Counted from the first letter of the stretch, positions 49,304-63,247 are shown. The stretch: DNA of 64,000 nt from Candidatus Bathyarchaeota archaeon (GCA_026014705.1 JAOZHU010000008.1:17833-81832); one strand, 5' to 3'. The notes: generated by a model from the letters alone, not told the origin. Translations and numbers: made by a program.

Positions 49304-49423
49304 CCTACTTTCGCTCTCCCCATCCGTACCTATACGCATACATGCGTATATATGCCGTTGGGAGTTGAACTTTATTGTGATTTGAAAGAAAAGAGGGAAA
49401 TATTGTTGTGCACTTTTGATTCC

Positions 49424-51142
49424 TTAAGATTTTATTTGATCAAGTATCCAATGAGGACCGTTTTCGTATCTCAAGTAGTTATCCACGTGAACGTAGGATG
49501 GTTCAGTGTAGGTGTTGGACCAACCAGACATTGATCCGCTTTCCCATGTTTCGCTAAAGAGTGCTACGCCATCATCGGTAAAGCTCCAATTGCCGTTATA
49601 ATATTTGACTAATTGTCCTCCGTCTGCTCCAGTGAATACGTTGTTTATGCTCCTATCTGAATTGTAAGCTGAACCGTCGTAGTATATGCAAGTTCCACCA
49701 GATTGGCCGGATGGCAAATAGTAGTAGACATTGAACCAGAGGTTGTCGTAGTAGCGCCGCATTTCAGCGTAGTACCAAATATTTTCATAGATTGGTGTTG
49801 CACATATCCACGTGGTCATGGCATTGTTTTTGACGTACCGTATGCCCAAATATATTTCGCCATCATCATCGTAGACCGCTACTATGTCGTGCCATTTAGA
49901 CCAGTCATTTGTGTTTCTCGCACAGGCCAGAACCGCGTAATTACCTCCTCCCGCGTCTCCATTTGTGAACATGTCGATGTTGAAGAGTGTTCCGAGTTTG
50001 CAGTCACTTTCTCTATCCCAAGTGAAACTAACGGTCTTTTGTGTGTATGCTTTATCGCTTGTGCTTTCTGAGTAGGTGCAGAATGATCCAAGATAGGAAC
50101 CCCACATGTTGCCCCAAATTTTCTTTTGTAGCATAGCCCATGAATGGCCTTCCCATCCGCCTTCAAAGTAGAAGTAATCTGATACTTCGTCGCATTGGCT
50201 ATAAATGGGTTCTACTGCAAGTGTTTGCCACCAGAAGAAATAACTTAAGTCAGAATAGAACGATTCCATTTCATCAATCAAATACTCAGTTTCAGTGTAA
50301 TCCAAGTTGAATGTTTCGCCAATGAATATTTGCTTATCTGGTTCATTCAAGTAGTTATAGGAATGACAATGACTGGCCCATTGGGTAGTACCGTAATGAT
50401 GTCGCCATTCATTGATCGCGAAAACTTCTTGATGTGTGTCTATGAAATCCCAATAGTCAGAGTATTTAACGCTGTCAAAGAACCAACAGTCACGATTAAT
50501 ATAGAAAGTTCCTGAAGCATTGTTAATTACATTTCCCATTGGAATGCTCTCAAAGGTAAACGGAATAGTGCTATAACTGTTCCACAAATCGTATAACATG
50601 TCTATGTAATCTGCCATATCCTCAAAGCTGTCGTAAGCCAAGTTATTGCCTGTTGGGTCACCGCAGTGAGGGCATGTTTGGTTAGCTTCGACCTCCTCCT
50701 CACCTATGAAAACTTTGACATCACTGTGATCCGCAAGATAATTCGCCAAATAGTAATAGAAATTACTTGCTTCACTATACGTCAATTTTTCTCCTGTGTG
50801 AAAGGTCGTTCTTGTCGCTACATAGATAACGTCATAGTAGTCATCAAAGTAATCTACCCACGTATGAATTCTGCCCGCAACGTAAGAGCCACTGTATAAA
50901 TCAGGGTCATAACCATAAGTAATCTTCACCGCTTGAAAGACTATTCCTTTACGAGTGTATGCTTCGTCAAGCATAGCTTTGACTGTAGCTGGAGTGATAT
51001 TGTTTTCGTCGCATGTCCAAGCTGAAATGAGTATGCCGAAATTACTTGTCCTATCTGTTGCGAAGGCAACATTTTGTGGGCCAAGTGTCACCAGTAGTAG
51101 CAAAGACAACGATACAACGATCCATAGCGATTTTTTGTTCAT
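49424..51142 (-). CDS. secreted aromatic-rich 572-aa protein (possible carbohydrate-active/lectin-like)
   Basis: Signal peptide MNKKSLWIVVSLSLLLLVTLG. Very Y/W/D/N-rich and AT-rich coding. ATGA overlap with the upstream gene. Confidence 0.6.
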   Translation of the reverse strand: MNKKSLWIVVSLSLLLLVTLGPQNVAFATDRTSNFGILISAWTCDENNITPATVKAMLDEAYTRKGIVFQAVKITYGYDPDLYSGSYVAGRIHTWVDYFDDYYDVIYVATRTTFHTGEKLTYSEASNFYYYLANYLADHSDVKVFIGEEEVEANQTCPHCGDPTGNNLAYDSFEDMADYIDMLYDLWNSYSTIPFTFESIPMGNVINNASGTFYINRDCWFFDSVKYSDYWDFIDTHQEVFAINEWRHHYGTTQWASHCHSYNYLNEPDKQIFIGETFNLDYTETEYLIDEMESFYSDLSYFFWWQTLAVEPIYSQCDEVSDYFYFEGGWEGHSWAMLQKKIWGNMWGSYLGSFCTYSESTSDKAYTQKTVSFTWDRESDCKLGTLFNIDMFTNGDAGGGNYAVLACARNTNDWSKWHDIVAVYDDDGEIYLGIRYVKNNAMTTWICATPIYENIWYYAEMRRYYDNLWFNVYYYLPSGQSGGTCIYYDGSAYNSDRSINNVFTGADGGQLVKYYNGNWSFTDDGVALFSETWESGSMSGWSNTYTEPSYVHVDNYLRYENGPHWILDQIKS

Positions 51143-51363
51143 TCATTTTCAGTTTCCTCCATCTTACAACCAGATGGTTGGATACAACCTTCAACTATGA
51201 CAACATGACCGTAAGGTGACTCACACGCCCAGACGACGCGAACATTCTTGTCCGTTTTGAAGAGTTTCTTGCCGAGAGCTCTGGCTACGGCGAGGACATC
51301 GCCCATGTCCCAGTCGGGGCGGTTTTGTGGTTTCACGATTAAGGCTTTCTGAACTTTCGTCAT
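51139..51363 (-). CDS. hypothetical 74-aa protein
   Basis: ATG 51363 overlaps the upstream stop (ATGA) and its own stop overlaps the next ATG (ATGA). Translates to MTKVQKALIVKPQNRPDWDMGDV... Confidence 0.5.
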   Translation of the reverse strand: MTKVQKALIVKPQNRPDWDMGDVLAVARALGKKLFKTDKNVRVVWACESPYGHVVIVEGCIQPSGCKMEETENE

Positions 51364-51695
51364 GGTTTCTTCCTTAATTGATTTTTGTCGCAGCTGTAGC
51401 AGCGTACGCCGGGGATCCACATGCCCGCACGTTTGCAGTGAACTTTGCCGTCGGATACGGCGCCATCCAAGAATAGGCAGAGCACACGCATGGGTTGCGG
51501 TTCTTCAGGCCTCGCGTACACACTAATTTTAAGCTGTGGATTCCCAAGGCTATGCGCTTGATTATGCTGCTGCATGAATGCCTCTATTTTTCTGCTGACT
51601 TTGTCGCCTTCACGTTTACAGATTTCCTGAAATGTTTGCAATGTTGCCTTGTCTATGTAGATGTTGGTGCGGGTTTTCTCGTTTGACTCAGTCAT
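51360..51695 (-). CDS. RHH-domain regulator with C-terminal Cys-rich extension
   Basis: MTESNEKTRTNIYIDKATLQTFQEICKREGDKVSRKIEAFMQ is an RHH pattern. The C-terminus is C..CKRAG...CYSC. Repeat arrays lie immediately upstream. Confidence 0.55.
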   Translation of the reverse strand: MTESNEKTRTNIYIDKATLQTFQEICKREGDKVSRKIEAFMQQHNQAHSLGNPQLKISVYARPEEPQPMRVLCLFLDGAVSDGKVHCKRAGMWIPGVRCYSCDKNQLRKKP

Positions 51696-51715
51696 ACTAT
51701 TCACTTCTTTTATGA

Positions 51716-51741
51716 GTGAATAACACACGTGAATAACACAC
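51716..51741. repeat. perfect 13-bp tandem direct repeat (gtgaataacacac x2)
   Basis: Read directly. The two units span 51716-51728 and 51729-51741. Confidence 0.85.
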
Positions 51742-51812
51742 ACGACACGACTACACGTGATAGTCTCCGCTAACGTAAACGCCATCATTTGATATTCTTT
51801 CAGGCGTTTTTT

Positions 51813-51836
51813 GTGTGTTATTCCTTTGTGTTATTC
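51813..51836. repeat. two inverted-orientation copies of the same motif (gtgttattc), 13-bp spacing
   Basis: gtgttattc at 51815-51823 and 51828-51836 is the reverse complement of the gaataacac core in the 51716-51741 repeats. Confidence 0.8.
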
Positions 51837-52098
51837 AGTCAGTTTGATTCAATTTCTTGGTTAATTCGGCAATCTTTGCCTCGAGTTCTTTGATTCGTTT
51901 GTCTTTGCTGTTCTCGGTCAGTTTTTTGAGGAGTTTGTCGATTTGCGGTTTGAGAGTGTAGCCTAATGCTATGCCGATGGGTAATGCCAACAGAGGCACG
52001 GCGTAGGCTATGATGATGCTGATTAGGATGGCGGCGACTTTGAGAAGTCGTTTGTTGCTCAGGATTTCTTCAAAGAAATCGAGTATGACGTCAAGCAT
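51835..52098 (-). CDS. small membrane protein with C-terminal coiled coil
   Basis: 87 aa. Hydrophobic VAAILISIIIAYAVPLLALPIGIALGY, then KELEAKIAELTKKL. Confidence 0.5.
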   Translation of the reverse strand: MLDVILDFFEEILSNKRLLKVAAILISIIIAYAVPLLALPIGIALGYTLKPQIDKLLKKLTENSKDKRIKELEAKIAELTKKLNQTD

Positions 52099-52264
52099 AC
52101 CCTTTATCCGCTCCCCTGAGTTTTCTTATGCAGGCATCTCCTGTTTCTTGCAAGCGCGGTCGCTGACATTTGTCGCCTACCCAATAGAGCATCCACCCGA
52201 GTAGCCACGTAGCGGTAATCAGCGGCCAGTAGATCAGTAGCAGAAGGCGATTCAACCACTTCAC
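52091..52264 (-). CDS. 57-aa TM mini-protein (below ORF-track cutoff)
   Basis: GTG start overlaps the upstream stop (GTGA), with GAAGGAGGT 6 nt upstream. Translates to (M)KWLNRLLLLIYWPLITATWLLGWMLYWVG... Confidence 0.5.
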   Translation of the reverse strand: MKWLNRLLLLIYWPLITATWLLGWMLYWVGDKCQRPRLQETGDACIRKLRGADKGYA

Positions 52265-52440
52265 GCTTTGACCTCCTTCTCAAAGCATTCACAAACACAA
52301 CAGGGAAAACCTGAAGTAACGCGCTTTCTCCCACAAAGGTTCTCTCGAAGTGCGGGATGTATATCTGGCGCACTACATCGTATGCCTTGTTTACCTTTTC
52401 GACTTACTGCTGATTTGCAGTGTTCAGCGGTCTTGCTCAT
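52261..52440 (-). CDS. 59-aa Cys-rich mini-protein
   Basis: ATGA overlap with the upstream gene. Translates to MSKTAEHCKS...IRCS...LCGRK...FPCCVCECFEKE. Confidence 0.45.
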   Translation of the reverse strand: MSKTAEHCKSAVSRKGKQGIRCSAPDIHPALRENLCGRKRVTSGFPCCVCECFEKEVKA

Positions 52441-52826
52441 GCTTTGATTCCCTCCAGCGCCAACTTTGCCCTAATCAAACCGTCAATGGTGCGGTCTAAG
52501 TAGCGAGCGTCAATGTGCGCTTCGAACCATGTTGTCCAGTCCCAAGCGTTACTACGTGCATACCCCAGCGTCTCCACGTGGTATGCGCCGTTTACGAATA
52601 GGACGATTTGCGGGTGGGGGGCGGTTTTTCCGCCGTCAGGCAGCAGCTTCACCGAAAGTACGTTGCGCTCGTGGTGTGTGTTTTGGTCGGCGTAGGCTAT
52701 GCGTGGCGGGATGCCTGTGCCTGCGAAGATTCGTGTTGGGTATGCTTTGGCGGCTTCCAAGGGGATTTCGCCGTATATTGTGCCGTTGGGTATGCGCTTC
52801 AAACTTTGCACAGCGAAACCTCCCAA
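52437..52826 (-). CDS. hypothetical 129-aa protein
   Basis: The track ORF. The more likely start is GTG at about 52811, 7 nt after GGGAGG. No domain recognised. Confidence 0.5.
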   Translation of the reverse strand: MGGFAVQSLKRIPNGTIYGEIPLEAAKAYPTRIFAGTGIPPRIAYADQNTHHERNVLSVKLLPDGGKTAPHPQIVLFVNGAYHVETLGYARSNAWDWTTWFEAHIDARYLDRTIDGLIRAKLALEGIKA

Positions 52827-53089
52827 TCAAAATGTTTACTGCAATAACGGTAGAAGACGCAGTCTCCGCATCCGAAGTCGCATGGGCATGTTTCTGTGCA
52901 GAATAATGGGCTTTTATGTGTGCATTTTGGGCATTTTGGGTTGGCTTCTTGTTTGGAAGAAGGGAGAGCATGCTCAACGGCGCCGGTCGCTTCCAAGCCC
53001 CTGCTGCTGCCTTCAGGGGACTCTCCGAGATTTGAACTTGGTTTGGGTGATGAATCGGCAAGGTTGCGGTGAGAGAGCGCAGGCGCCAT
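52799..53089 (-). CDS. 96-aa protein with Cys-rich C-terminus
   Basis: Internal ATG of the 154-aa track ORF. C-terminus is CPKCTHKSPLFCTETCPCDFGCGDCVFYRYC. Confidence 0.4.
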   Translation of the reverse strand: MAPALSHRNLADSSPKPSSNLGESPEGSSRGLEATGAVEHALPSSKQEANPKCPKCTHKSPLFCTETCPCDFGCGDCVFYRYCSKHFDWEVSLCKV

Positions 53090-53109
53090 GTTTCTTTTCC
53101 CCAAGAAGC

Positions 53110-53289
53110 CTAACCCCTGCTTGGTAGGGTACGTTGCAGTGTATCGCAGGGTATCGGGTGGTACTCGCGGAGGTTGACGAATTCGCAGTGGAATCTTCCG
53201 CAGGCGCAACTCAGCGTTTTTGTGTCGCTGTCCCAGACCATGTGCTCGTGGCATACGGTGCATTCAAAGCTGCTGCGGTACCGCGTCAT
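53110..53289 (-). CDS. 59-aa zinc-ribbon mini-protein
   Basis: Translated manually as MTRYRSSFECTVCHEHMVWDSDTKTLSCACGRFHCEF... The ATG overlaps the upstream stop (ATGA). Confidence 0.5.
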   Translation of the reverse strand: MTRYRSSFECTVCHEHMVWDSDTKTLSCACGRFHCEFVNLREYHPIPCDTLQRTLPSRG

Positions 53290-53456
53290 TGGAATCCTTC
53301 CTTGATGATTTTCTTCAGCTTCTCAGTACATTCAGGGCATAAATCGCGTTGAAAATCGTCGCCATCATCGTCTACGTTTGAGCCGAAAACTACCCAATTT
53401 AAGTCGTTTTGATTCTCGATTTCTTTGCCACAGTTATCGTAACAATAAAGTTTCAT
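53286..53456 (-). CDS. 56-aa zinc-ribbon mini-protein
   Basis: GGAGG lies 10 nt upstream. Translates to MKLYCYDNCGKEIEN...DLCPECTEKLKKIIKEGFQ. Confidence 0.5.
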   Translation of the reverse strand: MKLYCYDNCGKEIENQNDLNWVVFGSNVDDDGDDFQRDLCPECTEKLKKIIKEGFQ

Positions 53457-53521
53457 TTTGATATCGCCTCCAACTTCGCATACGCAGGTTTCTCAATTTT
53501 GTGAAGTTGCCGCATTCCATT

Positions 53522-54070
53522 TTACTCCTTTTTTTCGGTGAATGTATTTTTAGTGATGACTGCGGCTTTGGTGTTGACACAGATTTTGCCGTTTTTGCGT
53601 ACAATTGACTGCGGCGACTTTATGTTGACTTCTGCAGTGCTGGAACCAAAAGTGATGATTTCTACAGTGCTGGAACCATAAACACAGATTTTCTTAGGAT
53701 TAACTGCAAAACCTACAACATCTTTGAACACTTTTTCTTCGCCTTCAAAAGCAACCTGCACTTTAACATCATTAACCAACTGCATAAAAACAGCTTCTTC
53801 AATCGCACTTTTACGCTGTAAATACCACTCAGGCAAGGTATCCTGTTCATCCTCTGTATACGTCCATTTGGAAATAGGCATCATCTGCCGCGGGTCAGGA
53901 GGGGTAACTTCGACAAAAACTCGATCTCTGACTTTAATAGCGTCACAATCGTCTAAGGGTTTTAGACCAAATTCCTCTTCTATTTTTGCATGGCTATTTG
54001 TTTTAAATGAACCTAAGACTTCGGCTTTGCCATTGCGCCACGCAATAACGTAGCTTTTCATTTTGCACAT
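53522..54070 (-). CDS. hypothetical 182-aa protein
   Basis: Start chosen at ATG 54070, 6 nt after GGAGGC. No domain recognised. Confidence 0.5.
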   Translation of the reverse strand: MCKMKSYVIAWRNGKAEVLGSFKTNSHAKIEEEFGLKPLDDCDAIKVRDRVFVEVTPPDPRQMMPISKWTYTEDEQDTLPEWYLQRKSAIEEAVFMQLVNDVKVQVAFEGEEKVFKDVVGFAVNPKKICVYGSSTVEIITFGSSTAEVNIKSPQSIVRKNGKICVNTKAAVITKNTFTEKKE

Positions 54071-54273
54071 GTTTTTGCCTCCAACTTCGCATACGCCTCC
54101 CGTGCCAATTGCGCGCATGTTTTCGGTTTAACTGAGGGAATGTAAGCGGTGAGGTTAGAGCAAACGTGAGTTTCGCCATCAGCGGTTTCGCTTGTTATGC
54201 AGCGGCGGTCACCATACTCGCAATGAGGTAGGGCACAGTAAAATTCAAGTGTTATTTTTCTCCCTGTTTTCAA
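54058..54273 (-). CDS. 71-aa Cys-rich protein
   Basis: FYCALPHCEYGDRRC...HVCSN...CAQ pattern. Lies in the tightly packed minus-strand chain. Confidence 0.4.
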   Translation of the reverse strand: MKTGRKITLEFYCALPHCEYGDRRCITSETADGETHVCSNLTAYIPSVKPKTCAQLAREAYAKLEAKTCAK

Positions 54274-54281
54274 CGGCGTAA

Positions 54282-54449
54282 CTAAGCCTCCTGCCCAACG
54301 GTAACATTCGTTTCGGGATATCGCATCAGAAAGTTGCGTATGGCCTCTTTGACGATTTCCCCGCGGCTTCTGAATCCATGCTTACCAACGAGTTTATCGA
54401 TTTCATCAACCATTTCGTTGGGGAGTTTTATCGTGGTGTAGTCGTTCAT
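54282..54449 (-). CDS. ribbon-helix-helix (CopG/Arc/MetJ-type) regulator, 55 aa
   Basis: Not in the track. MNDYTTIKLPNEMVDEIDKLVGKHGFRSRGEIVKEAIRNFL. GAGGGG lies 8 nt upstream. Confidence 0.6.
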   Translation of the reverse strand: MNDYTTIKLPNEMVDEIDKLVGKHGFRSRGEIVKEAIRNFLMRYPETNVTVGQEA

Positions 54450-54450
54450 T

Positions 54451-54474
54451 CTATTACCCCTCTATTACTAATAG
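54451..54474. promoter_or_regulatory. candidate RHH operator: palindrome CTATTAcTAATAG plus extra CTATTA half-site
   Basis: The perfect palindrome at 54462-54474 and the half-site at 54451-54456 lie directly upstream of the RHH gene start (54449). Confidence 0.4.
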
Positions 54475-54537
54475 ACTACAACAAATCGTGAAGAAGAAAC
54501 AGAAAGAAGGATGGAAAATCGATCTGCCAGATGAAAC

Positions 54538-55527
54538 CTAACTATGCTTGTATATTTCAATGGCTATGAAAACCGCAAAAACCAAAACACCGATGGTTAC
54601 TGCAAAAACATACGGGTTATTGTACCATAAGTCACTCTGCGAAGACTCTGTCGGCGTTGGATCAGGAGAAATACCCAGTAACTCTAAAAGCGACATATAG
54701 ACTTCTTTTTCCTCATCGTCTATAGTTAGGAGACCGAAATAATTTTCCTTTTCAGGCACTAAACCCGTGTTGTCGTACATTTCGTAAATGAAGATTTTAT
54801 CGACTTCAGGGGTTAATCCAACAATGTTATCGACAAGATACTCTGCTTGACCGGTTTCTGTGTAGCCCTCTGTCGCTGAGGGTCTTCCGATTTCAGTTAC
54901 CCAGACGTTCTTGTTAGTTATTCCTTTTAAAGTGTCTATTGTCGCAACGTTTGCGGATAACTCATCATAAAGGTGCACTCCCAGATAGTCATAGTAGAAT
55001 CTTATTTCTGTGTTGTTGTAGACGGCATTGAAGTAATCCATCCAATTTTCTATTGGAGCTAACGCCCCAGAAATTACCAACGCGCCTGTTTCGTTCTTGA
55101 TTATTTGATAGGCGCTTTTCAGCATCTCAGTGTAGTTTTCAGGTGGAATATAGGCAGCTCCGTTCGGTTCGTTCCAAATCTCCCATGCGTCTATTTCCTG
55201 TGCTATGGGGTTATCGAGAATGTCGTAGAGCGTGTTGTTCCAAAGTTCAGGGGTCAAATCCGCAGCGTTTACGGTTCTGTTGTCGATTATTGCCAAAATT
55301 TTTATGTTGTGAGCTTTCAGGGCAGACATAGCGACGTCGCTTTCGTTGTATTGATAATCCATTCTAACCCACCTAACTTTCAGCTCTGAGAGGCGATCAA
55401 GCGTGGAACTACGATAATCTTCTGGGTGCAAACACACGTTTACTTCATAATTTGGTGAAGCATAAGCTAAAGTAATCAAAACTAAGAATGAAACAATGAT
55501 GATGTTTGTGGCCACTGTTTTTTTCAT
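54538..55527 (-). CDS. secreted clan GH-A (GH5-like TIM-barrel) glycoside hydrolase, C-terminally membrane anchored
   Basis: Signal peptide MKKTVATNIIIVSFLVLITLAYA. WEIWNEPN (acid/base NEP) and NVWVTEIG (nucleophile) motifs. PDPTPTE linker plus a TM helix ending IYKHS. Confidence 0.65.
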   Translation of the reverse strand: MKKTVATNIIIVSFLVLITLAYASPNYEVNVCLHPEDYRSSTLDRLSELKVRWVRMDYQYNESDVAMSALKAHNIKILAIIDNRTVNAADLTPELWNNTLYDILDNPIAQEIDAWEIWNEPNGAAYIPPENYTEMLKSAYQIIKNETGALVISGALAPIENWMDYFNAVYNNTEIRFYYDYLGVHLYDELSANVATIDTLKGITNKNVWVTEIGRPSATEGYTETGQAEYLVDNIVGLTPEVDKIFIYEMYDNTGLVPEKENYFGLLTIDDEEKEVYMSLLELLGISPDPTPTESSQSDLWYNNPYVFAVTIGVLVFAVFIAIEIYKHS

Positions 55528-55564
55528 TTTTTGTGCCTTAAGAATAGAAAAAAAGGTTGTGGGA

Positions 55565-56221
55565 TTAGAACTTTTTGATGTACCCGACACAGATACCCAC
55601 CGCCGCCAAGGCAACCACAACGCCCATCAGACCATACATTGCCGTCGTTACCGGGGCAGTCCGCGAATAGTTAGCTATGGTCACCACAATATAACCCGCT
55701 ATTTGACTGTTTTGCGGGTGCCCAGCAACGTTAATGTCAGTCAACGTGAAACCTGAATGCGCTGTTTTGTAGATCTGACTTGAGCCACTGTACACTGTCA
55801 AATATGTGCCGTCGTATTGAAAAGTCACAGTTTTGGAGTATGAGGAAACGGTTTTTTGGTACACTGTTCCTGTCTTTGTCCAGTTAGTGTATTTGTACAA
55901 GTATTCGGTCAGTTGGCCGCCTTCAGCTACGGTGTCGTGCTCCCAGCTTATTCCCCATCCGTCATGATCTGGATTTGCGATTTGCACTAAAAACCATGCT
56001 GTGTCATTGGTTGGCGCAGAAACTTCATGCAAATTTGAGAAATCCACAGTTACAGTGAAATTGCTATATGAGTTATCCAGCGTATCCCAGTACTCTGTGT
56101 ATATTTGGTCTTCGTTGAATGTGTATACTTCATTTGTTGTCGCAGCATAGACAGGAGTTGCTATAGCGATGCACAGCACTGCCAATACTGCAAGAGTCAG
56201 AAGTGCGTTCCGCCGGTGCAT
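55565..56221 (-). CDS. secreted beta-sandwich protein with C-terminal TM anchor (candidate envelope/structural protein)
   Basis: Start at ATG 56221, 11 nt after GGGAGG. Signal peptide LLTLAVLAVLCIAIATPVYA. TM helix ending GYIKKF. The upstream part of the 265-aa track ORF is rejected. Confidence 0.55.
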   Translation of the reverse strand: MHRRNALLTLAVLAVLCIAIATPVYAATTNEVYTFNEDQIYTEYWDTLDNSYSNFTVTVDFSNLHEVSAPTNDTAWFLVQIANPDHDGWGISWEHDTVAEGGQLTEYLYKYTNWTKTGTVYQKTVSSYSKTVTFQYDGTYLTVYSGSSQIYKTAHSGFTLTDINVAGHPQNSQIAGYIVVTIANYSRTAPVTTAMYGLMGVVVALAAVGICVGYIKKF

Positions 56222-56238
56222 TTGCGGATCCGCCTCCC

Positions 56239-56346
56239 TTAGAACTTGCCAAATTTCTTCAGCAAGCCAAGGACCATTCCAAGCATGGCGAAGGTGATGA
56301 TTAGGGGCATCCATTCGAGCACAGTGGATGTTATGTCTGAGCTCAT
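56239..56346 (-). CDS. 35-aa hydrophobic mini-protein
   Basis: GGAGG lies 9 nt upstream of the ATG. Translates to MSSDITSTVLEWMPLIITFAMLGMVLGLLKKFGKF. First gene of the leftward unit. Confidence 0.45.
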   Translation of the reverse strand: MSSDITSTVLEWMPLIITFAMLGMVLGLLKKFGKF

Positions 56347-56385
56347 TCGCTTTATCCTCCAAAAGATACTCTCATGTCCCAAATA

Positions 56386-56425
56386 AAACATTTGTTAAAC
56401 AAAATGGTTAACAATGTTTAAATTT
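56386..56425. promoter_or_regulatory. divergent control region: imperfect inverted repeat and TATA-like box
   Basis: AAACATTTGTT (56386-96) and AACAATGTTT (56410-19) form a 10/11 inverted repeat. TTTAAATTT (56417-25) lies about 28 nt upstream of the leaderless-looking ATG at 56449. Confidence 0.4.
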
Positions 56426-56448
56426 AAGTGTTTTGTTATATTTGGTAC

Positions 56449-56619
56449 ATGGAAAAGAACGAGTGCGGCAGACTTAACCTCTACCTTCCAAAAACCCTCA
56501 TTGCTTGGCTAACAAAACAAGCAGAAAGCAACCATCGAAGCCTCAACAACTACGTTACCGTTGTTCTTGAAGACCATAAAAAAGAGAAGGAGACAGCACC
56601 ATGTATATCGGTGCATTAA
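56449..56619 (+). CDS. ribbon-helix-helix regulator, 56 aa
   Basis: MEKNECGRLNLYLPKTLIAWLTKQAESNHRSLNNYVTVVLEDH is an RHH pattern. First gene of the rightward unit. Confidence 0.55.
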   Translation: MEKNECGRLNLYLPKTLIAWLTKQAESNHRSLNNYVTVVLEDHKKEKETAPCISVH

Positions 56620-56843
56620 TCCAGTTCCCAGACGGCGCACGGAAAATAGTTGAGTCAATAAGCGAACACGACTCCATAGCCATAGCCAAATTCATGGGCA
56701 AAATCGCCAAGTACGCCAAAAAAGAAAACAAGCTTGTGAAGGTGTGCGCTGACGACGTCAAAGCTCTCAAAGCTTTGTCGAAAGCGCTCGGCGGCGTAAC
56801 GGTTGAATGGGGAGTCATAGAGAGGGAGTACCCATGCGAATAA
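56601..56843 (+). CDS. hypothetical 80-aa protein
   Basis: GAAGGAGA lies 8 nt upstream. Overlaps both neighbours. Confidence 0.45.
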   Translation: MYIGALIQFPDGARKIVESISEHDSIAIAKFMGKIAKYAKKENKLVKVCADDVKALKALSKALGGVTVEWGVIEREYPCE

Positions 56844-58384
56844 ACTTGATTAAAATCAGTAGCGTCCTGATTTTTGCACTTCTGCTTTTAACAGCAACAG
56901 CTCCTAATTTTGCGAAAGCAATAGAGTCACAAACGGTAACCGTTTTTCCTGTTGCTGACGCCATGTGTGACAGCTTTAAACCTGACGAGAATTTCGGGTA
57001 TGCGAGCACTTTTACCGTTGGCGTCCAAGCAGATACGAGCATAAGAAAATATTACGCTAAATTTGACTTGTCAAGCTTCAACCTATCAAACATAATTAGT
57101 GCAAAGCTAAGGTTTTTGCCATTTCAAACGTCAAGCTCCTTCGCGATGGACATACACGAATGCGAAGATTACTGGCAGGAACCTACAATTTGTTGGAATA
57201 ATGCACCGTTCCAACAAAGCAAAGTTGGCGATTGCTGGATTGGCGACACTGGCATATGGTACGAGTTAAACGTTACATCCTTCGTAAAAACAGAATATGA
57301 TAAAGTCTGGAGTGTTGTATTTACTAACCAAACGGCAGTGGCAAACGCGGTAGCCTATTTCTTTAGCCGCGAAGACAGTCAATACTCTCCGAGGCTTATC
57401 ATAGAGTACATTCCACAACAAAGCACGCCTCCATCCGCTTCAGGCGGGCAATGGACATTAACGGGGGTAAGCGGTAACTGGAGCTACTCTACGGATCCAC
57501 TTCTGCTCGCGGGGGAAGGATGGAACGCTTCCCCCGCTTTCGCCAACTTCACCCACGGAAACCTGAACAAGACCTTTGCTGATGGGGAAGGCTTCCAAAT
57601 CAACTTCACCGTCAGCATTCAAGGCAACCGTCGTGAGTGGTGGTGGATTGAAGGCACCAAACGATTCTACTTTAGCCTTGGGATTCACGGTACTAATGAC
57701 GCAGCATATACGTTGTTCTACATTGCGCATGAACAAGGGTTTGCTTGGAGCAGCAGCGAAGCAAAAGTTGGCACACAACAGCAATACAATATTGGCAAGC
57801 CATGGCCGAGCTTGCAGGTTGGCGAAACAGTTGACACAACAGGCGCCGTGTACTATATACAAGTAATCCGTGTCAACGCCACTACGGCTAAAGTTGTATA
57901 TGCCACTAACGTGTTTGGCAACGACTTGGAAATTACTGAAGGCAGCATAAAAACCTTTAACGAAACGCTTACAGTGGATTCGTCAGTTTGGGATAATCCA
58001 GTGCTTAACTTGTACGCTGGTCATGACGGCAGTGGCACCTTTGAGTGCGTTTTTGGCGATGTGTACGTAGGCACCATAACAGGTTTTGAAGATCAAACAC
58101 CAACGCAACTTAACCCTAACCCGTTCCAATGGCTAATCGACGGTTTCAATTTTATTTGGGGTTTGGCTACCATGATAGGCGCCTTTGCAGGCGCGTTTTT
58201 GCCAATTTTGCCATGGATATTCCTGTTTTACGCTTTAGATGTAATAGTGACAAGCGTCCAAGTCGGCAGCGTACAACCAATCGGCAAATTCGCCCTGATG
58301 ATCTGGGAATTCCTGCTCAAGGTATGGTTCGTGCTCGTGCGTATTGGCCAACTCATCTGGGATGCGATAACTTTCTGGACGTGA
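56834..58384 (+). CDS. spike-like secreted protein: signal peptide, DNRLRE/CBM-like N-domain, C-terminal multi-TM region
   Basis: Start at ATG 56834 after GAGGGAG. PVADAMCD...NFGYAS...YYAKFDLSSF...AKLRF...YWQEPTICWNNAP pattern. The last ~90 aa form 2-3 hydrophobic helices. Confidence 0.6.
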   Translation: MRINLIKISSVLIFALLLLTATAPNFAKAIESQTVTVFPVADAMCDSFKPDENFGYASTFTVGVQADTSIRKYYAKFDLSSFNLSNIISAKLRFLPFQTSSSFAMDIHECEDYWQEPTICWNNAPFQQSKVGDCWIGDTGIWYELNVTSFVKTEYDKVWSVVFTNQTAVANAVAYFFSREDSQYSPRLIIEYIPQQSTPPSASGGQWTLTGVSGNWSYSTDPLLLAGEGWNASPAFANFTHGNLNKTFADGEGFQINFTVSIQGNRREWWWIEGTKRFYFSLGIHGTNDAAYTLFYIAHEQGFAWSSSEAKVGTQQQYNIGKPWPSLQVGETVDTTGAVYYIQVIRVNATTAKVVYATNVFGNDLEITEGSIKTFNETLTVDSSVWDNPVLNLYAGHDGSGTFECVFGDVYVGTITGFEDQTPTQLNPNPFQWLIDGFNFIWGLATMIGAFAGAFLPILPWIFLFYALDVIVTSVQVGSVQPIGKFALMIWEFLLKVWFVLVRIGQLIWDAITFWT

Positions 58385-58388
58385 AAAC

Positions 58389-58907
58389 ATGCCACAAGTG
58401 AAAATGAAACTTGAAATCCGAGACAAAGACCAAACATTCACCACCAAAGCCACATACGACCCAGACACGCATCTGGCAATCGCACAGCGCAAGTTCCGAC
58501 AGCAATTCCCCACCAAATACGTAGTCTCCCCAGACGACATAGTAAAACATATTACAACACGTGGACGGATCGAGTTGAAAGCCGATGTCAGCGTAGAAAC
58601 CCGCCATAGCATTCGCATAGCGCCGAACCCAGATTGGAAATCCATGTCTGACGAGCAGAAAATAGCCACGGAACATAAACCGCCAGATGTGCCAGACAAA
58701 AGCTTCAAAATTGACCTGCACGACCTGAAAACACTATACCAAGAACTCAAAAACATGCTTGACTACTTCACCGAAAGAAGCTACTGGGACAGCTTAATCA
58801 AAAAAGGCAAACTCTCCATAAGCACAATCCTGATCCTGCTCACCGCAGGCGGCGGACTATTCTACCTCATCCGCGACATAATCCTGCCAATCTTCGGAGC
58901 GCACTAA
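58389..58907 (+). CDS. hypothetical protein with C-terminal TM helix
   Basis: 172 aa. Ends LSISTILILLTAGGGLFYLIRDIILPIFGAH. Confidence 0.5.
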   Translation: MPQVKMKLEIRDKDQTFTTKATYDPDTHLAIAQRKFRQQFPTKYVVSPDDIVKHITTRGRIELKADVSVETRHSIRIAPNPDWKSMSDEQKIATEHKPPDVPDKSFKIDLHDLKTLYQELKNMLDYFTERSYWDSLIKKGKLSISTILILLTAGGGLFYLIRDIILPIFGAH

Positions 58908-58910
58908 AGC

Positions 58911-59288
58911 ATGGATGACAGCGAGAAAGCGCGACTCAAGAAAGAACTCATGCAGCGCTTAGGACTAAGCACCAAAGAAGAAGCCATAGCCAAATCAGTC
59001 ACCGAACTAACCGACAAAGACAAACTAAAAATGATGACAAACCTGCTTCAAGGCGAGGATGCTTCATTCGCCACGCTCAGCGTCATAGCAGACAGATACA
59101 AGCTGCCATGGCTACGCCAAACCGTAGACGAAAGACTCGAGCTTCGCATGAGCGTGAGCGGGTGGAAAGCCAACCAAATAGTCACGGTAGCAACAGAGAA
59201 AATGAAGGAGATCCGCCGAAGCCTCAGAGACAGGATATTCCATCGTGGCGAGAAAGGCAGCAAATGGCAAGTAGAGGAATTCGAATGA
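58911..59288 (+). CDS. hypothetical 125-aa protein
   Basis: Charged, helical. Lies 3 nt after the upstream stop, and its own stop overlaps the next ATG. Confidence 0.45.
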   Translation: MDDSEKARLKKELMQRLGLSTKEEAIAKSVTELTDKDKLKMMTNLLQGEDASFATLSVIADRYKLPWLRQTVDERLELRMSVSGWKANQIVTVATEKMKEIRRSLRDRIFHRGEKGSKWQVEEFE

Positions 59289-59374
59289 TAGAGCTACTGG
59301 TGCATTTCTTGATTGGCTTTGTTGTTGGATTCGTTATTGGAATCTCATTGCATCCCATTTCCAAGGGTGATTAA
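59285..59374 (+). CDS. 29-aa TM mini-protein
   Basis: ATGA overlap with the upstream gene. Translates to MIELLVHFLIGFVVGFVIGISLHPISKGD. Confidence 0.35.
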   Translation: MIELLVHFLIGFVVGFVIGISLHPISKGD

Positions 59375-59376
59375 AA

Positions 59377-59715
59377 ATGAGTTTTCAACCTAAAAAGAAA
59401 TATGATATCGAGATGCAAACACTCCAAACGCTTAGCCAGAAACTCGCAGCGAAACGGAACGACCTTGCCGACTACGCTTGCAATCTTAACGCTGACAAAC
59501 TCGCAATACTCGACTTGTACATCAAAGCCTATGAAAAAGAGGGTCCTGAATTTACCGACTGGTTGAAAGGCATGCGCGAGCAACTTAAGCTCCAAGGCGA
59601 AGCCTTGTGGATCATGCACGCAGACGTGCTCACAAACCTTGGTTTGAAAGTTGGAAAGACTGGAATGAGGGAGATCAGTGGAAAACGCAGCAATGGTCCA
59701 GACGCCCCAGTATAG
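59377..59715 (+). CDS. hypothetical 112-aa protein
   Basis: Starts 2 nt after the previous stop. Helical, no domain recognised. Confidence 0.45.
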   Translation: MSFQPKKKYDIEMQTLQTLSQKLAAKRNDLADYACNLNADKLAILDLYIKAYEKEGPEFTDWLKGMREQLKLQGEALWIMHADVLTNLGLKVGKTGMREISGKRSNGPDAPV

Positions 59716-60475
59716 TGAAGCGTTAGCTGACATAGTTTCACAGTTTTTTAAACAGTACAAGTATCCCGTCTGCGTCATCTATGGCAACCCCGACACAGGA
59801 AAAAGCGACACCGCCTGCCTATTCGCCGAAATCGCACTCAACGAGAAATGCATAGACTACTTTGCGTCGAATATGAGTACTTATGGTCATGGCGAGAAAA
59901 TTACTTCGTTACAGGATGTCAACTACTGGTTTGCTCATCAAGTCGGAAAGAAACTGTTTATTCTTGATGAAGCTGGAATCCATGATGATACGCGCTCGCC
60001 GCTTAGCGGATTAACCCGCAAGATACGCCACAGCGTCTTTGTGACCCGCAAGTTCTTTGGTCATTGGATCTTCATTCTGCAGGATATCAAGGACTTGGAT
60101 ACTTGGAAAGACAGCGAGCTCACAGGCATGATCGTCAAGAAGCAAGTGTTCGGCAACGAGTTTGTTGCAAAGATCAAGTGCAAGTGGAACGAGGACCTCA
60201 TAACTGTCCGTGACTTCCCGAAAGCCACATTGCCATTTGACACGTTGGATATTGCACCATTCACTCTCGAACGGCAACTCACAGACGAAGAACTGGAGCT
60301 GAAGGGCACGCCGAATAAAGTCGCGTACCTCTATGCGGCGACTGGGAATTTTAGCGTTATTTGTAAGCAGTTGAAGCAGGATACTGGGCAAGAGTGGAAG
60401 CCTATGCAAGTGAAGCGTGCGCTTCAGCAGTACATACGGCAAACCCTGCGAGCACATGAATCGCCTGAAAATTAA
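59678..60475 (+). CDS. P-loop NTPase (Walker A/B)
   Basis: Walker A is GNPDTGKS (aa 36-43) and Walker B is KLFILDEAG. The start could be the internal Met at 59693. Confidence 0.65.
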   Translation: MENAAMVQTPQYSEALADIVSQFFKQYKYPVCVIYGNPDTGKSDTACLFAEIALNEKCIDYFASNMSTYGHGEKITSLQDVNYWFAHQVGKKLFILDEAGIHDDTRSPLSGLTRKIRHSVFVTRKFFGHWIFILQDIKDLDTWKDSELTGMIVKKQVFGNEFVAKIKCKWNEDLITVRDFPKATLPFDTLDIAPFTLERQLTDEELELKGTPNKVAYLYAATGNFSVICKQLKQDTGQEWKPMQVKRALQQYIRQTLRAHESPEN

Positions 60476-60577
60476 AAAACCCGTTAATTAACGCAGTGCG
60501 TAGTGTTGAGGTACCATCTCAAGTTTTGTTAAGTTTTCGGGTTTAGGCGTGGTTTCTCCATGCTTTAGACTAATAAT

Positions 60578-60940
60578 CTAAAGTTCGCTACGTAACAAAG
60601 GACGTTTTTCATGTGAGAATTTGGGGAGTTGCTGTTGACCGCAATAAAGATTTTCAGACATCTTAATTTGCATCTTGGTCTTCTTAGTCAGAGCAGCTCG
60701 CGTAATTGCAGTTCCCTGGGATAGACTATAACTCTTTGCAAAGTTGTTCTTCCGAGTTTGAGTCTTAATCGCTAATGTCCAATGCGGAAGAATTCTTTTT
60801 GTCTCAAGGTATATGTTTGGGTCAGCGACGCATCTCTCACAAGCGAAAGCTTTGACGTATCCGCTGACGCTAGTCAAGCCGATTACTATGCCGTGGTCGC
60901 TGTGGAACCCGCATACGCAGCAGTTCATTCCCCGTTCCAT
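60578..60940 (-). CDS. zinc-ribbon-containing hypothetical protein
   Basis: 120 aa. N-terminal CCVCG...CERC. Confidence 0.4.
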   Translation of the reverse strand: MERGMNCCVCGFHSDHGIVIGLTSVSGYVKAFACERCVADPNIYLETKRILPHWTLAIKTQTRKNNFAKSYSLSQGTAITRAALTKKTKMQIKMSENLYCGQQQLPKFSHEKRPLLRSEL

Positions 60941-61278
60941 CCGATAACCGTACCCGCCAACCGCTCCCAGTGGCGCTCACATAAACCCACCCTTCGTTTG
61001 TCGCCTTTCGCCGTCTTGTACTGCACATAAAGAAGCGGATTCATTTGGCAATCTTTGCATTTGTGATACTCTGCGAGGCGCATGGCATTAAGCGGTCGGC
61101 TAATGTCAGCGCCATCATGCCGCATTGGAAGGTCTCGCTCGTCTGAAATTATATATTTCTCAAGAGCATCGTGTTCTTGATGGACTTTGCATGCTGAAAC
61201 ACGATTTTTTACTTGTACATGTTGTTTTTCCATGACACCAATCAAGCAATTTCCTCCACTAAATTCTTTCAAATTCAC
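60925..61278 (-). CDS. Cys/His-rich hypothetical protein
   Basis: 117 aa. HKCKDC...CERH pattern. Lies downstream of int(C) on the same strand. Confidence 0.4.
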   Translation of the reverse strand: MNLKEFSGGNCLIGVMEKQHVQVKNRVSACKVHQEHDALEKYIISDERDLPMRHDGADISRPLNAMRLAEYHKCKDCQMNPLLYVQYKTAKGDKRRVGLCERHWERLAGTVIGWNGE

Positions 61279-61368
61279 AAATAGATGCTAATTTTCCATG
61301 AACAGCAAATAAGTGAGCATATGTGAAGTCGCCAAGGCTACACTCTTTTCTTAAAGATATGCCAAGCC

Positions 61369-62262
61369 TCAAACTTTCACCTTCTCTTGTATCTCGCTTA
61401 TACCCTGAAACACACGAGTCCTCAAGTCTACAATCAACGCAGGATTGAAGTAGTGCTGCATGAACACGCTTCCCGTTACCCTGCCATGCAGAAAATCAAT
61501 CTCTTGCTGCTTGAGATACTTTGTCATAAACGTGGCATGTGCCTCACGCACGTCGCTGAACCGCAAAGGTAAAACCCGCTTCGTGCTCGTTTGAATCGTG
61601 AACTTGTTAAGCTGCTTACTTTCCGCTACGTGATACACCAAGTCTTGTGGCACAAATGACACAAATGCCTTTTTCGTATTCCGCAGAAAGAGCTCTTTAA
61701 ACTTGTAATGCTCCAGCACCGCCTTGTCATGCACGTAGTAATCAGCGAGCTTTCGCTCCGCCGCCAACTTAATAACCAAATTGTAAGCCGAAACAGCTTC
61801 AACAAGCCGCAAACCCGTCACCGCTAAAAAGTCCACGAATACAGCAAACTCAGGACGCAACCGCTTCAAATCACGGATCCACTGCCAAATTTCCTCAGGG
61901 TTCTGTATTTTATTTAGTCGCTCAATAAACACATCATCCTTGCTTTTACCTGCCCACTTCAAATTATACTGGGATGCCAACCGCCGCCAATCATCATACT
62001 CACCACGAAACTTGGCCAACGCACTAAGCGAAGCCATAACCAACCGCCGCTTCCCAGCACTAAACCCAAGCAACGCCGACAAATCACGCCCTAAAAAGCA
62101 ATCCTGAAAACTCCGAGCGTAATTCGCCATGTACCGCGCAACATGCGGCTTATGCTTCCCCTCACTCAACAACCACTCTTCAAACTTAACCCAGAACTCC
62201 CAACCGAGGGAGTCGCGAGAACCGCGGGTTTTCGCTTCGCAATCAAGAAGCCGCGGGTTCAA
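61369..62262 (-). CDS. SSV-type tyrosine integrase, C-terminal catalytic fragment int(C)
   Basis: AVTGLRLVEA (Arg), DVREAHATF, FLHGRVTGSVFMQHY (His-x-Arg ... Tyr) contexts. The 5' end runs into attR. Codons NPRLLDCE are the antisense of the tRNA T-arm and anticodon stem. Confidence 0.8.
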   Translation of the reverse strand: MNPRLLDCEAKTRGSRDSLGWEFWVKFEEWLLSEGKHKPHVARYMANYARSFQDCFLGRDLSALLGFSAGKRRLVMASLSALAKFRGEYDDWRRLASQYNLKWAGKSKDDVFIERLNKIQNPEEIWQWIRDLKRLRPEFAVFVDFLAVTGLRLVEAVSAYNLVIKLAAERKLADYYVHDKAVLEHYKFKELFLRNTKKAFVSFVPQDLVYHVAESKQLNKFTIQTSTKRVLPLRFSDVREAHATFMTKYLKQQEIDFLHGRVTGSVFMQHYFNPALIVDLRTRVFQGISEIQEKVKV

Positions 62263-62279
62263 ATCCCGCCCGGTCCACT
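62236..62279 (+). repeat. attR (44-bp core, orphan tRNA-Ala 3' half)
   Basis: Identical to 49082-49125. Followed by the host oligo-T tract. Confidence 0.9.
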
Positions 62280-62399: not shown

Positions 62400-62690
62400 T
62401 TGCGTTGCCACAACCAAGTGGCAATGAATCGACTGAAAGAAGGAACCAACATGAAAAAAGAAACAAACGCCACCGAACCCTACTACTACATAGCCTTAGT
62501 AGTAAAGGGCACAGAAAAACAATACCTAAACCTTCTCAAATACCTCAAAAACCGCAACAAATCCCAAGTAATATACCAATGCAAATCCCTCACCTACCTC
62601 CGCATAGCCAGAGACAACGGCGTCAAAATTCAAGCTGCCCACATCGGACAACAGCTTGAAACTGAAACACAGGGAGGTGCTGCACCATGA
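62400..62690 (+). CDS. hypothetical protein
   Basis: The track ORF. The likely start is an internal Met (62424 or 62451). Its stop overlaps the next ATG (ATGA). Confidence 0.35.
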   Translation: MRCHNQVAMNRLKEGTNMKKETNATEPYYYIALVVKGTEKQYLNLLKYLKNRNKSQVIYQCKSLTYLRIARDNGVKIQAAHIGQQLETETQGGAAP

Positions 62691-63247
62691 AAAACTTCTT
62701 AAGGAATAAGCGAGCTTTAGGCACGTCAGTAGCCAACCTCATCGTCATAACAGCCACTGTGCTACTGTCTCTCACCGTGACAACTTTTGCCATGAACATC
62801 ACCGCAAGTCAAGTGCAGAAAGAAAGCATGTACATTGCAAGCAGCCACATATGGTACGTCAACAGCACCTACAGCATCGGCGCAATAGCCGCCACCAACA
62901 CCGGACCAACCGACATTGTGCTAACAAGACTCGTCATTAAAGGAATGCAATGCGCTTGGAACGGCGAAACAAATTTCGTCGTCTACTGCAAAGAACAGAA
63001 TTCACCCGGCGACCTGCCTTTCGTTGCAAACCTAACCCGAGAAGACAACGTCATAGCCATATCGAACTCCACCTACACTTTCACCGCTACAAGCGAAGGA
63101 TTGACGCTTAAATCAGGCTGGACAATCATGTTCTACATCGTCATACCTGAATGCATAATGGTTTACGACTTGGGTACACCCGTGCGCATAACACTCGCTA
63201 CAACTCAAGCAGTCTACTGCACTGAAACCAATGTCCAAACATCGTAA
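62687..63247 (+). CDS. archaeal type IV pilin-like protein (class III signal peptide)
   Basis: The N-terminal KRALGTSVANLIVITATVLLSLTV resembles a prepilin-type signal (basic residues, small residue, ~20 hydrophobic residues). A beta-rich domain follows. Confidence 0.45.
   Translation: MKNFLRNKRALGTSVANLIVITATVLLSLTVTTFAMNITASQVQKESMYIASSHIWYVNSTYSIGAIAATNTGPTDIVLTRLVIKGMQCAWNGETNFVVYCKEQNSPGDLPFVANLTREDNVIAISNSTYTFTATSEGLTLKSGWTIMFYIVIPECIMVYDLGTPVRITLATTQAVYCTETNVQTS

Follow-up and report, generated by a model that had tools for sequence, protein, structure and literature searches.

What is encoded by the eight genes that run rightward through positions 56449-60475 of a 64,000-nucleotide stretch of DNA from Candidatus Bathyarchaeota archaeon (GCA_026014705.1 JAOZHU010000008.1:17833-81832; the whole stretch is called the window in the following)? 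An initial annotation had read these genes as a virus-like morphogenesis module reminiscent of the core of pleolipoviruses. The operon is there, but it is not a free-standing unit: it forms the core of a 13.15-kb integrated element at 49082-62279. The data show directly that the element is temperate and mobile and belongs to a widespread and conserved family, of which no description was found in the literature searched. Judged from its genes only, the element appears, on a slight balance of probability, to be either a temperate virus with a membrane envelope and no capsid or a vesicle-borne element; its nucleoside triphosphatase (NTPase) alone links it to the pleolipoviruses.

All eight open reading frames (ORFs) lie on the plus strand. 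They encode, in this order, a ribbon-helix-helix (RHH) regulator of the Arc/CopG-like type (56449-56619), a soluble protein of 80 amino acids (aa) (p80, 56601-56843), a spike-like 516-aa glycoprotein (56834-58384; 525 aa with a start at 56807 in the NCBI call), the tail-anchored protein p172 (58389-58907), the soluble helical protein p125 (58911-59288), the 28-aa peptide p28 with a single transmembrane (TM) segment (59288-59374), the soluble helical protein p112 (59377-59715) and an AAA+ NTPase of 265 aa (59678-60475). The gaps between successive genes are −19, −10, +4, +3, −1, +2 and −38 nt, and the eight genes therefore form a single, tightly coupled operon, as had been annotated; the block recurs in dozens of independent contigs. 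The RHH assignment is weak but consistent (Pfam Arc, 8e-4, and TraY, 1e-3, both under the Pfam cut-offs; PHROG Arc-like repressor, 7e-4), and the gene is retained in relatives. For p80, p172, p125, p28 and p112 no family was found in Pfam, PHROG or NCBIfam. p80, which has no TM segment, is 77-81% identical in close relatives and 44% identical in the relative L006. The predicted tail-anchored protein is p172, in which the N-domain is conserved, the linker varies and a TM segment lies at the C-terminus; p125 carries the motif SVxGWRANQIV. A TM peptide had also been correctly predicted, but it has 28 rather than 29 residues and is placed between the two helical proteins p125 and p112 rather than before them; genes for 32-aa peptides are called at this position in L002, L003, L004, L018, L019 and L021. 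The p112 gene is always found immediately before the NTPase gene and overlapping it, and this pair is retained even in loci without the membrane genes. The identity of p112 is 77-96% in relatives from Bathyarchaeia and 47% in the Nitrososphaerota locus L010. The Walker A (GNPDTGKS) and Walker B (LFILDEAG) motifs of the NTPase are evident from its translation.

The element is bounded by two copies of a 44-bp direct repeat (attL, 49082-49125; attR, 62236-62279) that are 100% identical and correspond to the 3′ half of a tRNA-Ala (CGC) gene (49049-49124, plus strand; found with ARAGORN; Rfam tRNA, 69.8 bits), which is the integration target. Overlapping attR with its 5′ end is Int(C), the catalytic part of an SSV-type tyrosine integrase (61369-62262, minus strand; PF16795, the Pfam family Archaeal phage integrase, 3e-11; phrog_5127, 2e-12), and at the other boundary a minus-strand ORF starting at 49339 runs through attL and contains Int(N), the N-terminal fragment of the same split integrase (49082-49303, minus strand). 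When Int(N) and Int(C) are joined in silico across one att copy, an uninterrupted frame of 374 codons results. The rejoined integrase (from M13) is 58% identical (E 1e-160) to the integrase of 375 aa that is intact in the circular contig L002, in an alignment that spans the att-encoded peptide WTGRDLNPRLLDCE. The enzyme responsible for the insertion is an SSV-type integrase; the att site lies in its gene, which is split on integration. In this self-splitting mode, for which the enzymes are called suicidal, the integrase gene is inactivated (PMC7253208). The att site inside the int ORF, the tRNA 3′ half as target, the Int(N)/Int(C) split and the PF16795 match are all as in the SSV-type (type I) archaeal integrases; among the features tested there was no difference, and the integration system of the element is an ordinary one.

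How widespread is such an element? A scan of JGI metagenomes yielded 176 relatives of the NTPase. A third homologue search, with a deep alignment, added almost nothing. Conservation was counted in 39 non-redundant loci in which the sequence extends 2.5 kb or more upstream of the NTPase gene. In 33 of them p172, p125, p112 and the NTPase occur together, and 30 of these 33 also have the core of the spike-like protein. The loci with the block come from Bathyarchaeia and Nitrososphaerota. One NTPase homologue (P0020, 67% identity) is labelled as belonging to a metagenome-assembled genome (MAG) of Candidatus Jordarchaeaceae (Asgard), for which mis-binning or a wider host range is possible. Close relatives share the RHH regulator, p80, the spike, p172, p125, p28, p112, the NTPase and the integrase and, on the opposite strand, a glycosidase-like anchored protein, an anchored protein of about 220 aa and a 35-aa peptide, whereas the distant copy L010 from a Nitrososphaerota MAG has a spike core without head, p170, p133, p102, the NTPase and the integrase.

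Four relatives are circular. Ga0311022_11431380 has 19,417 bp and a terminal overlap of 127 nt, and Ga0136652_1001247 has 10,963 bp and an overlap of 91 nt; Ga0272448_1002783 (L041 and L042) is a head-to-tail 1.5x concatemer of 14,159 bp and Ga0315282_10002297 (L049 and L066) a head-to-tail 2x concatemer of 17,583 bp. The concatemeric contigs could reflect wrap-around during assembly or true replication concatemers. Intact SSV-type integrases are encoded by two of the four circular genomes. The 10,963-bp genome is, on inspection, similar in gene content to the element in the window: both have a secreted protein (566 versus 572 aa), and several small genes of the left arm are common to them. 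The integrated copy therefore looks complete. With the att repeats, the split integrase and the episomes the possibility of an ordinary cellular surface operon, found in syntenic and non-mobile contexts, could be ruled out. A conjugative element was likewise ruled out, since there are no genes of a type IV secretion system: with Pfam and NCBIfam no VirB4, VirD4, relaxase, HerA-type ATPase or Rep was found in the larger ORFs of the element and in the scanned proteins of ten relatives, no known plasmid function was matched, and a tblastn search of PLSDB with the NTPase returned nothing.

The connection to known viruses is made by the NTPase. Among 38,880 PHROGs its sole significant match is phrog_1979 (8.9e-16), the family that takes the core NTPases of pleolipoviruses (HRPV-3 ORF5, SNJ2 gp17, His2 ORF33 and HRPV-10 ORF7) at 1e-93 to 1e-153. 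When 34 NTPases of the Bathyarchaeia type were compared by hhalign with five NTPases from pleolipoviruses, the probability was 99.2% (E 2e-19) over 175 columns, and the match reaches well past the Walker motifs, for example into RKFxGxxIxI and IPxTxxxFDTxDxAxF. In hmmsearch the NTPase finds HRPV-3 (2e-18), His2 (2e-11) and SNJ2 (3e-9); by tblastn HRPV-3 ORF5 is found at 1e-3. Weak matches to RFC-like structures in the PDB put the enzyme in the AAA+ class, and there is a match of 0.09 to a DnaC-like PHROG family. These profile comparisons establish true homology between this enzyme and the core NTPase of pleolipoviruses (HRPV-1 gene 8 family). The C-terminus of the NTPase in the window looks, in our reading only, like a helix-turn-helix and may be a putative DNA-binding tail. 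The proposed likeness to the pleolipovirus core holds for this protein; detectable counterparts of VP3, ORF6 and ORF7 are lacking. When the families of the module were compared by hhalign and hmmsearch with the proteomes of HRPV-3, SNJ2, His2, HRPV-10, HGPV-1, AvPV1, ApPV1 and GacPV1, the NTPase alone was matched, apart from a weak match of the integrase to that of ApPV1. The order of genes does run parallel to that in HRPV-3, SNJ2, His2, HGPV-1 and AvPV1: a spike is followed by an anchored protein of about 170-190 aa, small proteins and the NTPase.

The second protein on which the interpretation depends is the spike-like glycoprotein. It is built of a signal peptide, a CBM96 head (aa 34-191), a beta-sandwich core (aa ~205-415) and a hydrophobic C-terminal anchor of two to three helices that ends in IWDAITFWT. 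The signal peptide, the hydrophobic C-terminus and the DNRLRE/CBM-like N-domain had all been recognized before; the latter is now identified by Pfam as CBM96 (PF24517, 7e-24, 84.9 bits versus a cut-off of 26) and by NCBIfam as DNRLRE (NF033679, 2e-20, 73.5 bits versus a cut-off of 34). The modelled head superimposes on the solved CBM96 structure 8wab (Foldseek E 1e-10, target TM-score 0.76), and in BFVD it matches domains of large phage proteins, including a pectate lyase of Bacillus phage SP-15. The head is, however, present in only four of 11 aligned spike sequences, that of the window included, whereas the conserved part of the homologues consists of the C-terminal ~310 residues. An exhaustive profile search found 134 cluster representatives of the spike-core family, mostly of 320-360 aa; a typical homologue of this size has a signal peptide, an ectodomain of ~210 aa and the anchor, without a head.

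A full-length AlphaFold2 model of the spike was mediocre (predicted local distance difference test, pLDDT, 63.6); its Foldseek matches were dominated by the CBM96 head, and no pleolipovirus spike was among the PDB or BFVD matches listed. It was replaced by a model of the core only, built on an alignment of 33 sequences, which with a pLDDT of 87 shows a beta-sandwich followed by two long helices. Against the PDB the core finds legume lectins, ERGIC-53, VIP36 and the binding domains of botulinum toxin (E ~1e-5 to 3e-4, probability ~1.0, with modest query TM-scores of 0.24-0.33). As modelled, the spike core is a ConA/L-type-lectin-like jelly-roll beta-sandwich on a helical membrane anchor. Searches by sequence gave nothing comparable: the spike profile found only spurious antibody matches in the PDB, a tblastn search of phage records with the core found nothing, and hhalign and hmmsearch comparisons with five to eight spikes of the pleolipovirus type were negative.

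The spike is also the fastest-evolving protein of the module. Its identity to relatives is 61%, as compared to 80-92% for most of its neighbours, and in comparisons of the window with its closest relatives identity is 45-50% for the head, 69-77% for the core and ~91-92% for p125, p112 and the NTPase. This divergence of spike and head is the pattern expected of a host-recognition protein. Sequons for N-glycosylation number ten in the spike, six in the glycosidase and four in p218, the last two being encoded on the opposite strand, and none were found in p172, p125, p112 and p80.

Three divergent genes on the minus strand for membrane or secreted proteins (54538-56346) are found at the same place in relatives and should be counted as part of the core module. 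The outermost (54538-55527) encodes a membrane-anchored, glycoside-hydrolase-like protein with a signal peptide and a C-terminal TM segment (Pfam Glyco_hydro_cc, 6e-10); in relatives GH99/GH71-like genes are found at this position. The second (55565-56221) encodes p218, a secreted protein of ~218 aa with a C-terminal TM anchor, which in most relatives has positional homologues of 214-255 aa. The third (56239-56346) encodes p35, a 35-aa peptide (MSSDITSTVLEWMPLIITFAMLGMVLGLLKKFGKF) in which an acidic N-terminus is followed by one TM helix and the tail KKFGKF. It is present in most loci, with 62-94% identity across the relatives found by tblastn, and its TM helix and KKFGK tail are nearly invariant in six aligned relatives. 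A hidden Markov model (HMM) of p35 also matches, at 1e-11 to 1e-18, the C-terminal anchors of the adjoining ~220-aa proteins in relatives, which are the positional homologues of p218; the 14,159-bp genome, for instance, has SQWMPLIITFAMLGVALGFIKKYAG. From its sequence p35 looks like a free-standing copy of the neighbouring anchor.

Between these genes and the operon lies a divergent promoter/operator (56385-56423), an imperfect palindrome (AAACATTTGTTAA...TTAACAATGTTT) that overlaps a TATA-like box, TTTAAAT, 26-32 nt upstream of the ATG of the RHH gene. The palindromic promoter is kept by most of 13 relatives in an alignment of 14 sequences and is a candidate binding site for the RHH regulator. 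An exact search with an 18-mer from this promoter (GTTTAACAATGTTTAAAT) gave as sole match the IMG/VR contig UViG_3300035643_000220 (L103), where at 2199-2404 it stands beside a homologue of the RHH gene (1e-16). This contig, otherwise unrelated to the element, is that of a head-tailed virus with a terminase large subunit, a Mu-like portal and a cement protein. Since 18-mer and RHH gene are common to both, unrelated mobile elements, probably of the same hosts, share an RHH-operator switch, which could permit cross-regulation or cross-immunity between them.

What, then, does the element do? The reading as a virus or vesicle-borne element is favoured by the homologous NTPase, the gene order, the genome size, the set of exported, glycosylated and anchored proteins, the fast-diverging spike, the anchored glycosidases and the absence of hallmarks of conjugation or plasmids. 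Conservation of the block, CBM96-type domains in phage proteins and the RHH-operator cassette in a head-tailed virus point in the same direction. With respect to size, the genomes of the family fall in or near the range of 7-17 kb given for pleolipoviruses (PMC12642806). The anchored glycosidases are possibly, as an analogy of our own, receptor-destroying enzymes or depolymerases. A cycle can be envisaged as follows. After excision, the RHH regulator would act on the palindromic divergent promoter and release the operon. The N-glycosylated spike, exported by the Sec route, would enter the cell membrane together with the glycosidase, the ~218-aa protein, p172, p35 and p28, and the soluble proteins p80, p125 and p112 and the AAA+ NTPase would bring the circular DNA to this membrane patch, from which capsid-less membrane vesicles would bud; as with pleolipoviruses, the cell would not lyse. 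The spike, with its lectin fold and exchangeable head (CBM96 in this case), might then bind surface glycans of a new cell, and these glycans would be trimmed by the anchored glycosidase; the DNA would enter by membrane fusion and then integrate into the tRNA gene.

There are, however, several findings that speak against this interpretation. A detectable homologue exists for only one of the five core genes of pleolipoviruses: p80, p35 and the spike anchor gave at most 0.1% in hhalign with four VP3-like proteins, and p172, p125 and p112, whose alignments are shallow, did not match their positional equivalents in five pleolipoviruses or the proteomes of thalassapleoviruses. By hmmsearch the NTPase is not linked to the ATPases of thalassapleoviruses either. 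The suggestion that the spike resembles a fusion protein is not supported for the V-shaped fusogen of the VP4 type, since the fold of the core model is that of L-type lectins and the pleolipovirus VP5 structure 6QGL is absent among its top 50 PDB matches listed by Foldseek, and a fusogenic activity of a lectin-fold spike is pure inference. The full block is missing in six of the 39 loci. Among these are L011 (6642-11505) and L012 (5650-8782), two loci of Bathyarchaeia chromosomes in which distant NTPases (26-30% identity) are found beside a primase-polymerase, an SF3-type helicase and an integrase, without the membrane genes (spike, p172 and p125 are absent); upstream in L012 there is a type I restriction-modification system. 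Because of these relatives the NTPase is not strictly tied to virion formation and is alone no proof of a virion. The initial annotation had proposed a search of viromes for circular contigs sharing the block; four (11-19.4 kb) do exist in metagenomes, but protein scans of IMG/VR with the NTPase and with the 34-sequence NTPase alignment found no relatives. Finally, no recognizable replication gene was seen in the circular genomes examined, even the complete ones; more precisely, no replication protein was found in the element of the window, in selected proteins of L002 and L006, or in the ORFs read in two of the four circular genomes. The initial annotation had likewise noticed no capsid, Rep, polymerase or MCM, and none of these domains was found with Pfam, PHROGs and NCBIfam.

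A comparison with known systems helps to place the element. With the Pleolipoviridae, in particular the beta and gamma genera (HRPV-3, SNJ2 and His2), it shares the homologous AAA+ NTPase, the logic of the operon, a small circular genome, the absence of a capsid gene and a temperate lifestyle, with integration into tRNA genes in some members (SNJ2). The Pleolipoviridae differ in having a V-shaped VP4/VP5 spike instead of a lectin-type beta-sandwich on a helical anchor, a VP3-like protein and ORF6/7, which have no detectable counterparts here, and an NTPase that is ~120 aa longer by an N-terminal region, which the enzyme of the element lacks. Their hosts are Halobacteria rather than Thermoproteota (Bathyarchaeia), and SNJ2 encodes its own distinct family of tyrosine integrases (PMC5861418) rather than one of the SSV type. 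In the literature searched, relatives of pleolipoviruses are so far on record only for Halobacteria, Methanonatronarchaeia, Methanomassiliicoccales and Archaeoglobi (PMC10919331). The Thalassapleoviridae (AvPV1, ApPV1 and GacPV1) are, like the element, integrated in tRNA genes of non-halophilic archaea, and ApPV1 has an order of integrase, RHH gene, structural genes and AAA+ ATPase, with a gene for ~110-155 aa just before the ATPase as in the window; their VP3-like and VP4-like proteins and, by hmmsearch, their ATPase have no detectable similarity to proteins of the element. Because a VP4 fold and VP3 were looked for and not found, the best course is to place the element outside both the Pleolipoviridae and the Thalassapleoviridae, in a new group whose presumed way of working is that of a pleolipovirus; it is probably an undescribed, distant relative of the pleomorphic archaeal viruses.

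With respect to viruses of the same hosts, four families from Bathyarchaeia have been ratified, none of them pleomorphic (PMC12451623); those described comprise two head-tailed families, one filamentous and one spindle-shaped (PMC10848311, PMC12451623). The Huangdivirus provirus (Huangdiviridae) from Bathyarchaeia also carries a tyrosine integrase, an AAA+ ATPase and a polysaccharide-degrading enzyme (PMC10848311). It differs by its fusellovirus-type capsid proteins VP1-3 and its ATV-type ATPase, neither of which was found here with PHROGs. A fusellovirus was ruled out on the same grounds, there being no VP1-like capsid protein: the scanned module genes have no PHROG match to a small capsid protein with two hydrophobic helices or to a DnaA-like ATPase, and p35 has only a single helix. 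A survey of integrated elements in Thaumarchaeota contains no mention of such a module (PMC6563490).

The most serious competitor, to which we assign a minor though appreciable share of the probability, is an integrative plasmid like pT26-2 or pR1SE, in which the membrane block and the AAA+ ATPase would be an apparatus for transferring or secreting DNA or protein, or serve to remodel the host surface, without any infectious particle. The pT26-2 family of Thermococcales and Methanococcales follows the same logic, with an SSV-type integrase, tRNA genes as targets, a variable arm and a conserved block in which TM proteins predominate and which includes a carbohydrate-binding domain and an AAA+ ATPase (PMC6972569), a likeness that is architectural only and taken from the description. 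Its core consists of seven genes (t26-5p, 6p, 7p, 11p, 13p, 14p and 15p), the products of which have no homologues outside the family; the block has been read by its authors as a transfer system, and vesicle or transfer hypotheses were put forward (PMC6972569). Also in line with a plasmid are the NTPase relatives in plasmid-like elements with primase-polymerase and helicase, the lack of a capsid and of a relative in IMG/VR, and the fact that glycosidases and CBM proteins could be cargo for a polymer-degrading host. It has to be considered, however, that the ATPase of pT26-2 is VirB4/HerA-like and not of the pleolipovirus type, that its elements are larger (17-38 kb) and that they reside in another host phylum. 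In the element of the window the sole significant PHROG match of the NTPase is to an enzyme from the virion module of pleolipoviruses, no ATPase of the VirB4, VirD4 or HerA type, relaxase, Rep or PLSDB match was found, and within the module divergence is greatest in the spike and its head, as expected for host recognition. For capsid-less membrane vesicles the border between such a plasmid and a virus or vesicle-borne element is in any case partly semantic.

Unlikely, in our estimation, is another type of virion with a coat protein that escapes recognition because of its small size or its divergence. A filament or spindle could, for example, be built from p35; the lectin-fold protein would then be the adhesin at its end, and the NTPase would serve in assembly. 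Few proteins of the element are as well conserved as p35, and its acidic N-terminus, single hydrophobic helix and basic KKFGKF tail follow the layout of inovirus major coat proteins; the distant NTPase of L011 gives a weak Zot-like match (1.6e-3). The assembly ATPase pI of inoviruses has a TM segment, however, which the NTPase lacks, no rolling-circle Rep was found, and the proteins of the window have no PHROG match to capsid proteins of fuselloviruses or spindle-shaped viruses or to the Zot family. It is true that SSV-type integrases are typical of spindle-shaped viruses (PMC7253208), but p35 has one helix whereas the capsid proteins of these viruses form a two-helix hairpin (PMC10848311). 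The homology of p35 to the C-terminal anchors of neighbouring proteins suggests a membrane anchor rather than a coat subunit. Unlikely to much the same degree is a defective or domesticated remnant, an immobile integrated copy whose surface genes serve the host. Integration of the SSV type inactivates the integrase gene (PMC7253208), cores of pT26-2 persist in immobile copies (PMC6972569), and in one relative, L018, the NTPase gene call is truncated (151 aa). In the window, however, both halves of the integrase are open and rejoin in frame, the att repeats are identical over all of their 44 bp, every gene of the module is intact, and the gene content is, by inspection, like that of the free 10,963-bp circular genome.

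Outside this core, two small genes on the minus strand between module and integrase (60578-61278) encode proteins of 120 and 117 aa, the latter 39-46% identical to the products of genes at the same position in L002-L006. On the other side, next to attL, a 572-aa secreted protein with a signal peptide and without family match (49424-51142, minus strand) begins the variable arm; by eye it looks similar to the secreted protein of 566 aa that the 10,963-bp circular genome encodes in the corresponding place. In the 19.4-kb circular relative L002 this position, adjoining the integrase, is taken by a protein of 1,411 aa without Pfam match (11888-16123, minus strand). There follow small minus-strand ORFs for proteins of 93, 142, 87, 129, 56 (Zn-ribbon-like), 198 and 71 aa (51139-54449), and the arm includes a CopG-type RHH gene (54282-54449, minus strand; Pfam RHH_1, 5e-10). 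The variable arm is partly conserved in L002, L003, L005, L006 and L007, and no replication domain was found in it. Within the arm, the region 52000-53300 has a G+C content of 0.515, as compared to 0.43-0.46 elsewhere in the element, and long overlapping ORFs on both strands, among which only that for 129 aa (52437-52826, minus strand) is conserved in relatives (74-78% identity). A 30-nt tandem repeat (53626-53691; 2.2 copies, 81% matches) lies inside the minus-strand ORF 53522-54118, where it repeats the peptide GSST..E..I near the C-terminus. Just to the right of attR, a 186-aa protein (62687-63247, plus strand) has an N-terminus resembling a class III signal peptide of the type IV pilin/archaellin type (KRALGTSVANLIVI...) and is presumably the product of a host surface-filament gene. 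No CRISPR array was found within the window.

Bathyarchaeia are among the most abundant archaea in sediments. If the family makes particles, the vesicle-type virus lifestyle would extend to the Thermoproteota, a second and structurally unrelated envelope protein would be available for studying membrane fusion in archaea, and the spike core, p172, p125, p112 and the NTPase would provide a marker set for metagenomics. Catalogues based on virus detection appear to miss the group, as the scans of IMG/VR gave 0 relatives versus 176 in JGI metagenomes. If instead the family represents a transfer system of the plasmid type, it would be a new one for a major uncultured lineage. Only tentatively can a further step be taken, namely that Thermoproteota (Bathyarchaeia and Nitrososphaerota) are host to a widespread and so far unrecognized lineage of viruses that have an envelope and no capsid, with an attachment and fusion protein of a new class composed of a ConA-like lectin ectodomain, a conserved helical-hairpin anchor and exchangeable glycan-binding heads, and with the NTPase, together with p112, as the only ancient shared gene. 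The larger significance would come with the demonstration of particles and of a new type of fusion or attachment protein. Were this lineage real, the vesicle-virus lifestyle, or its NTPase module, would either predate the split of the major archaeal phyla or have crossed between them.

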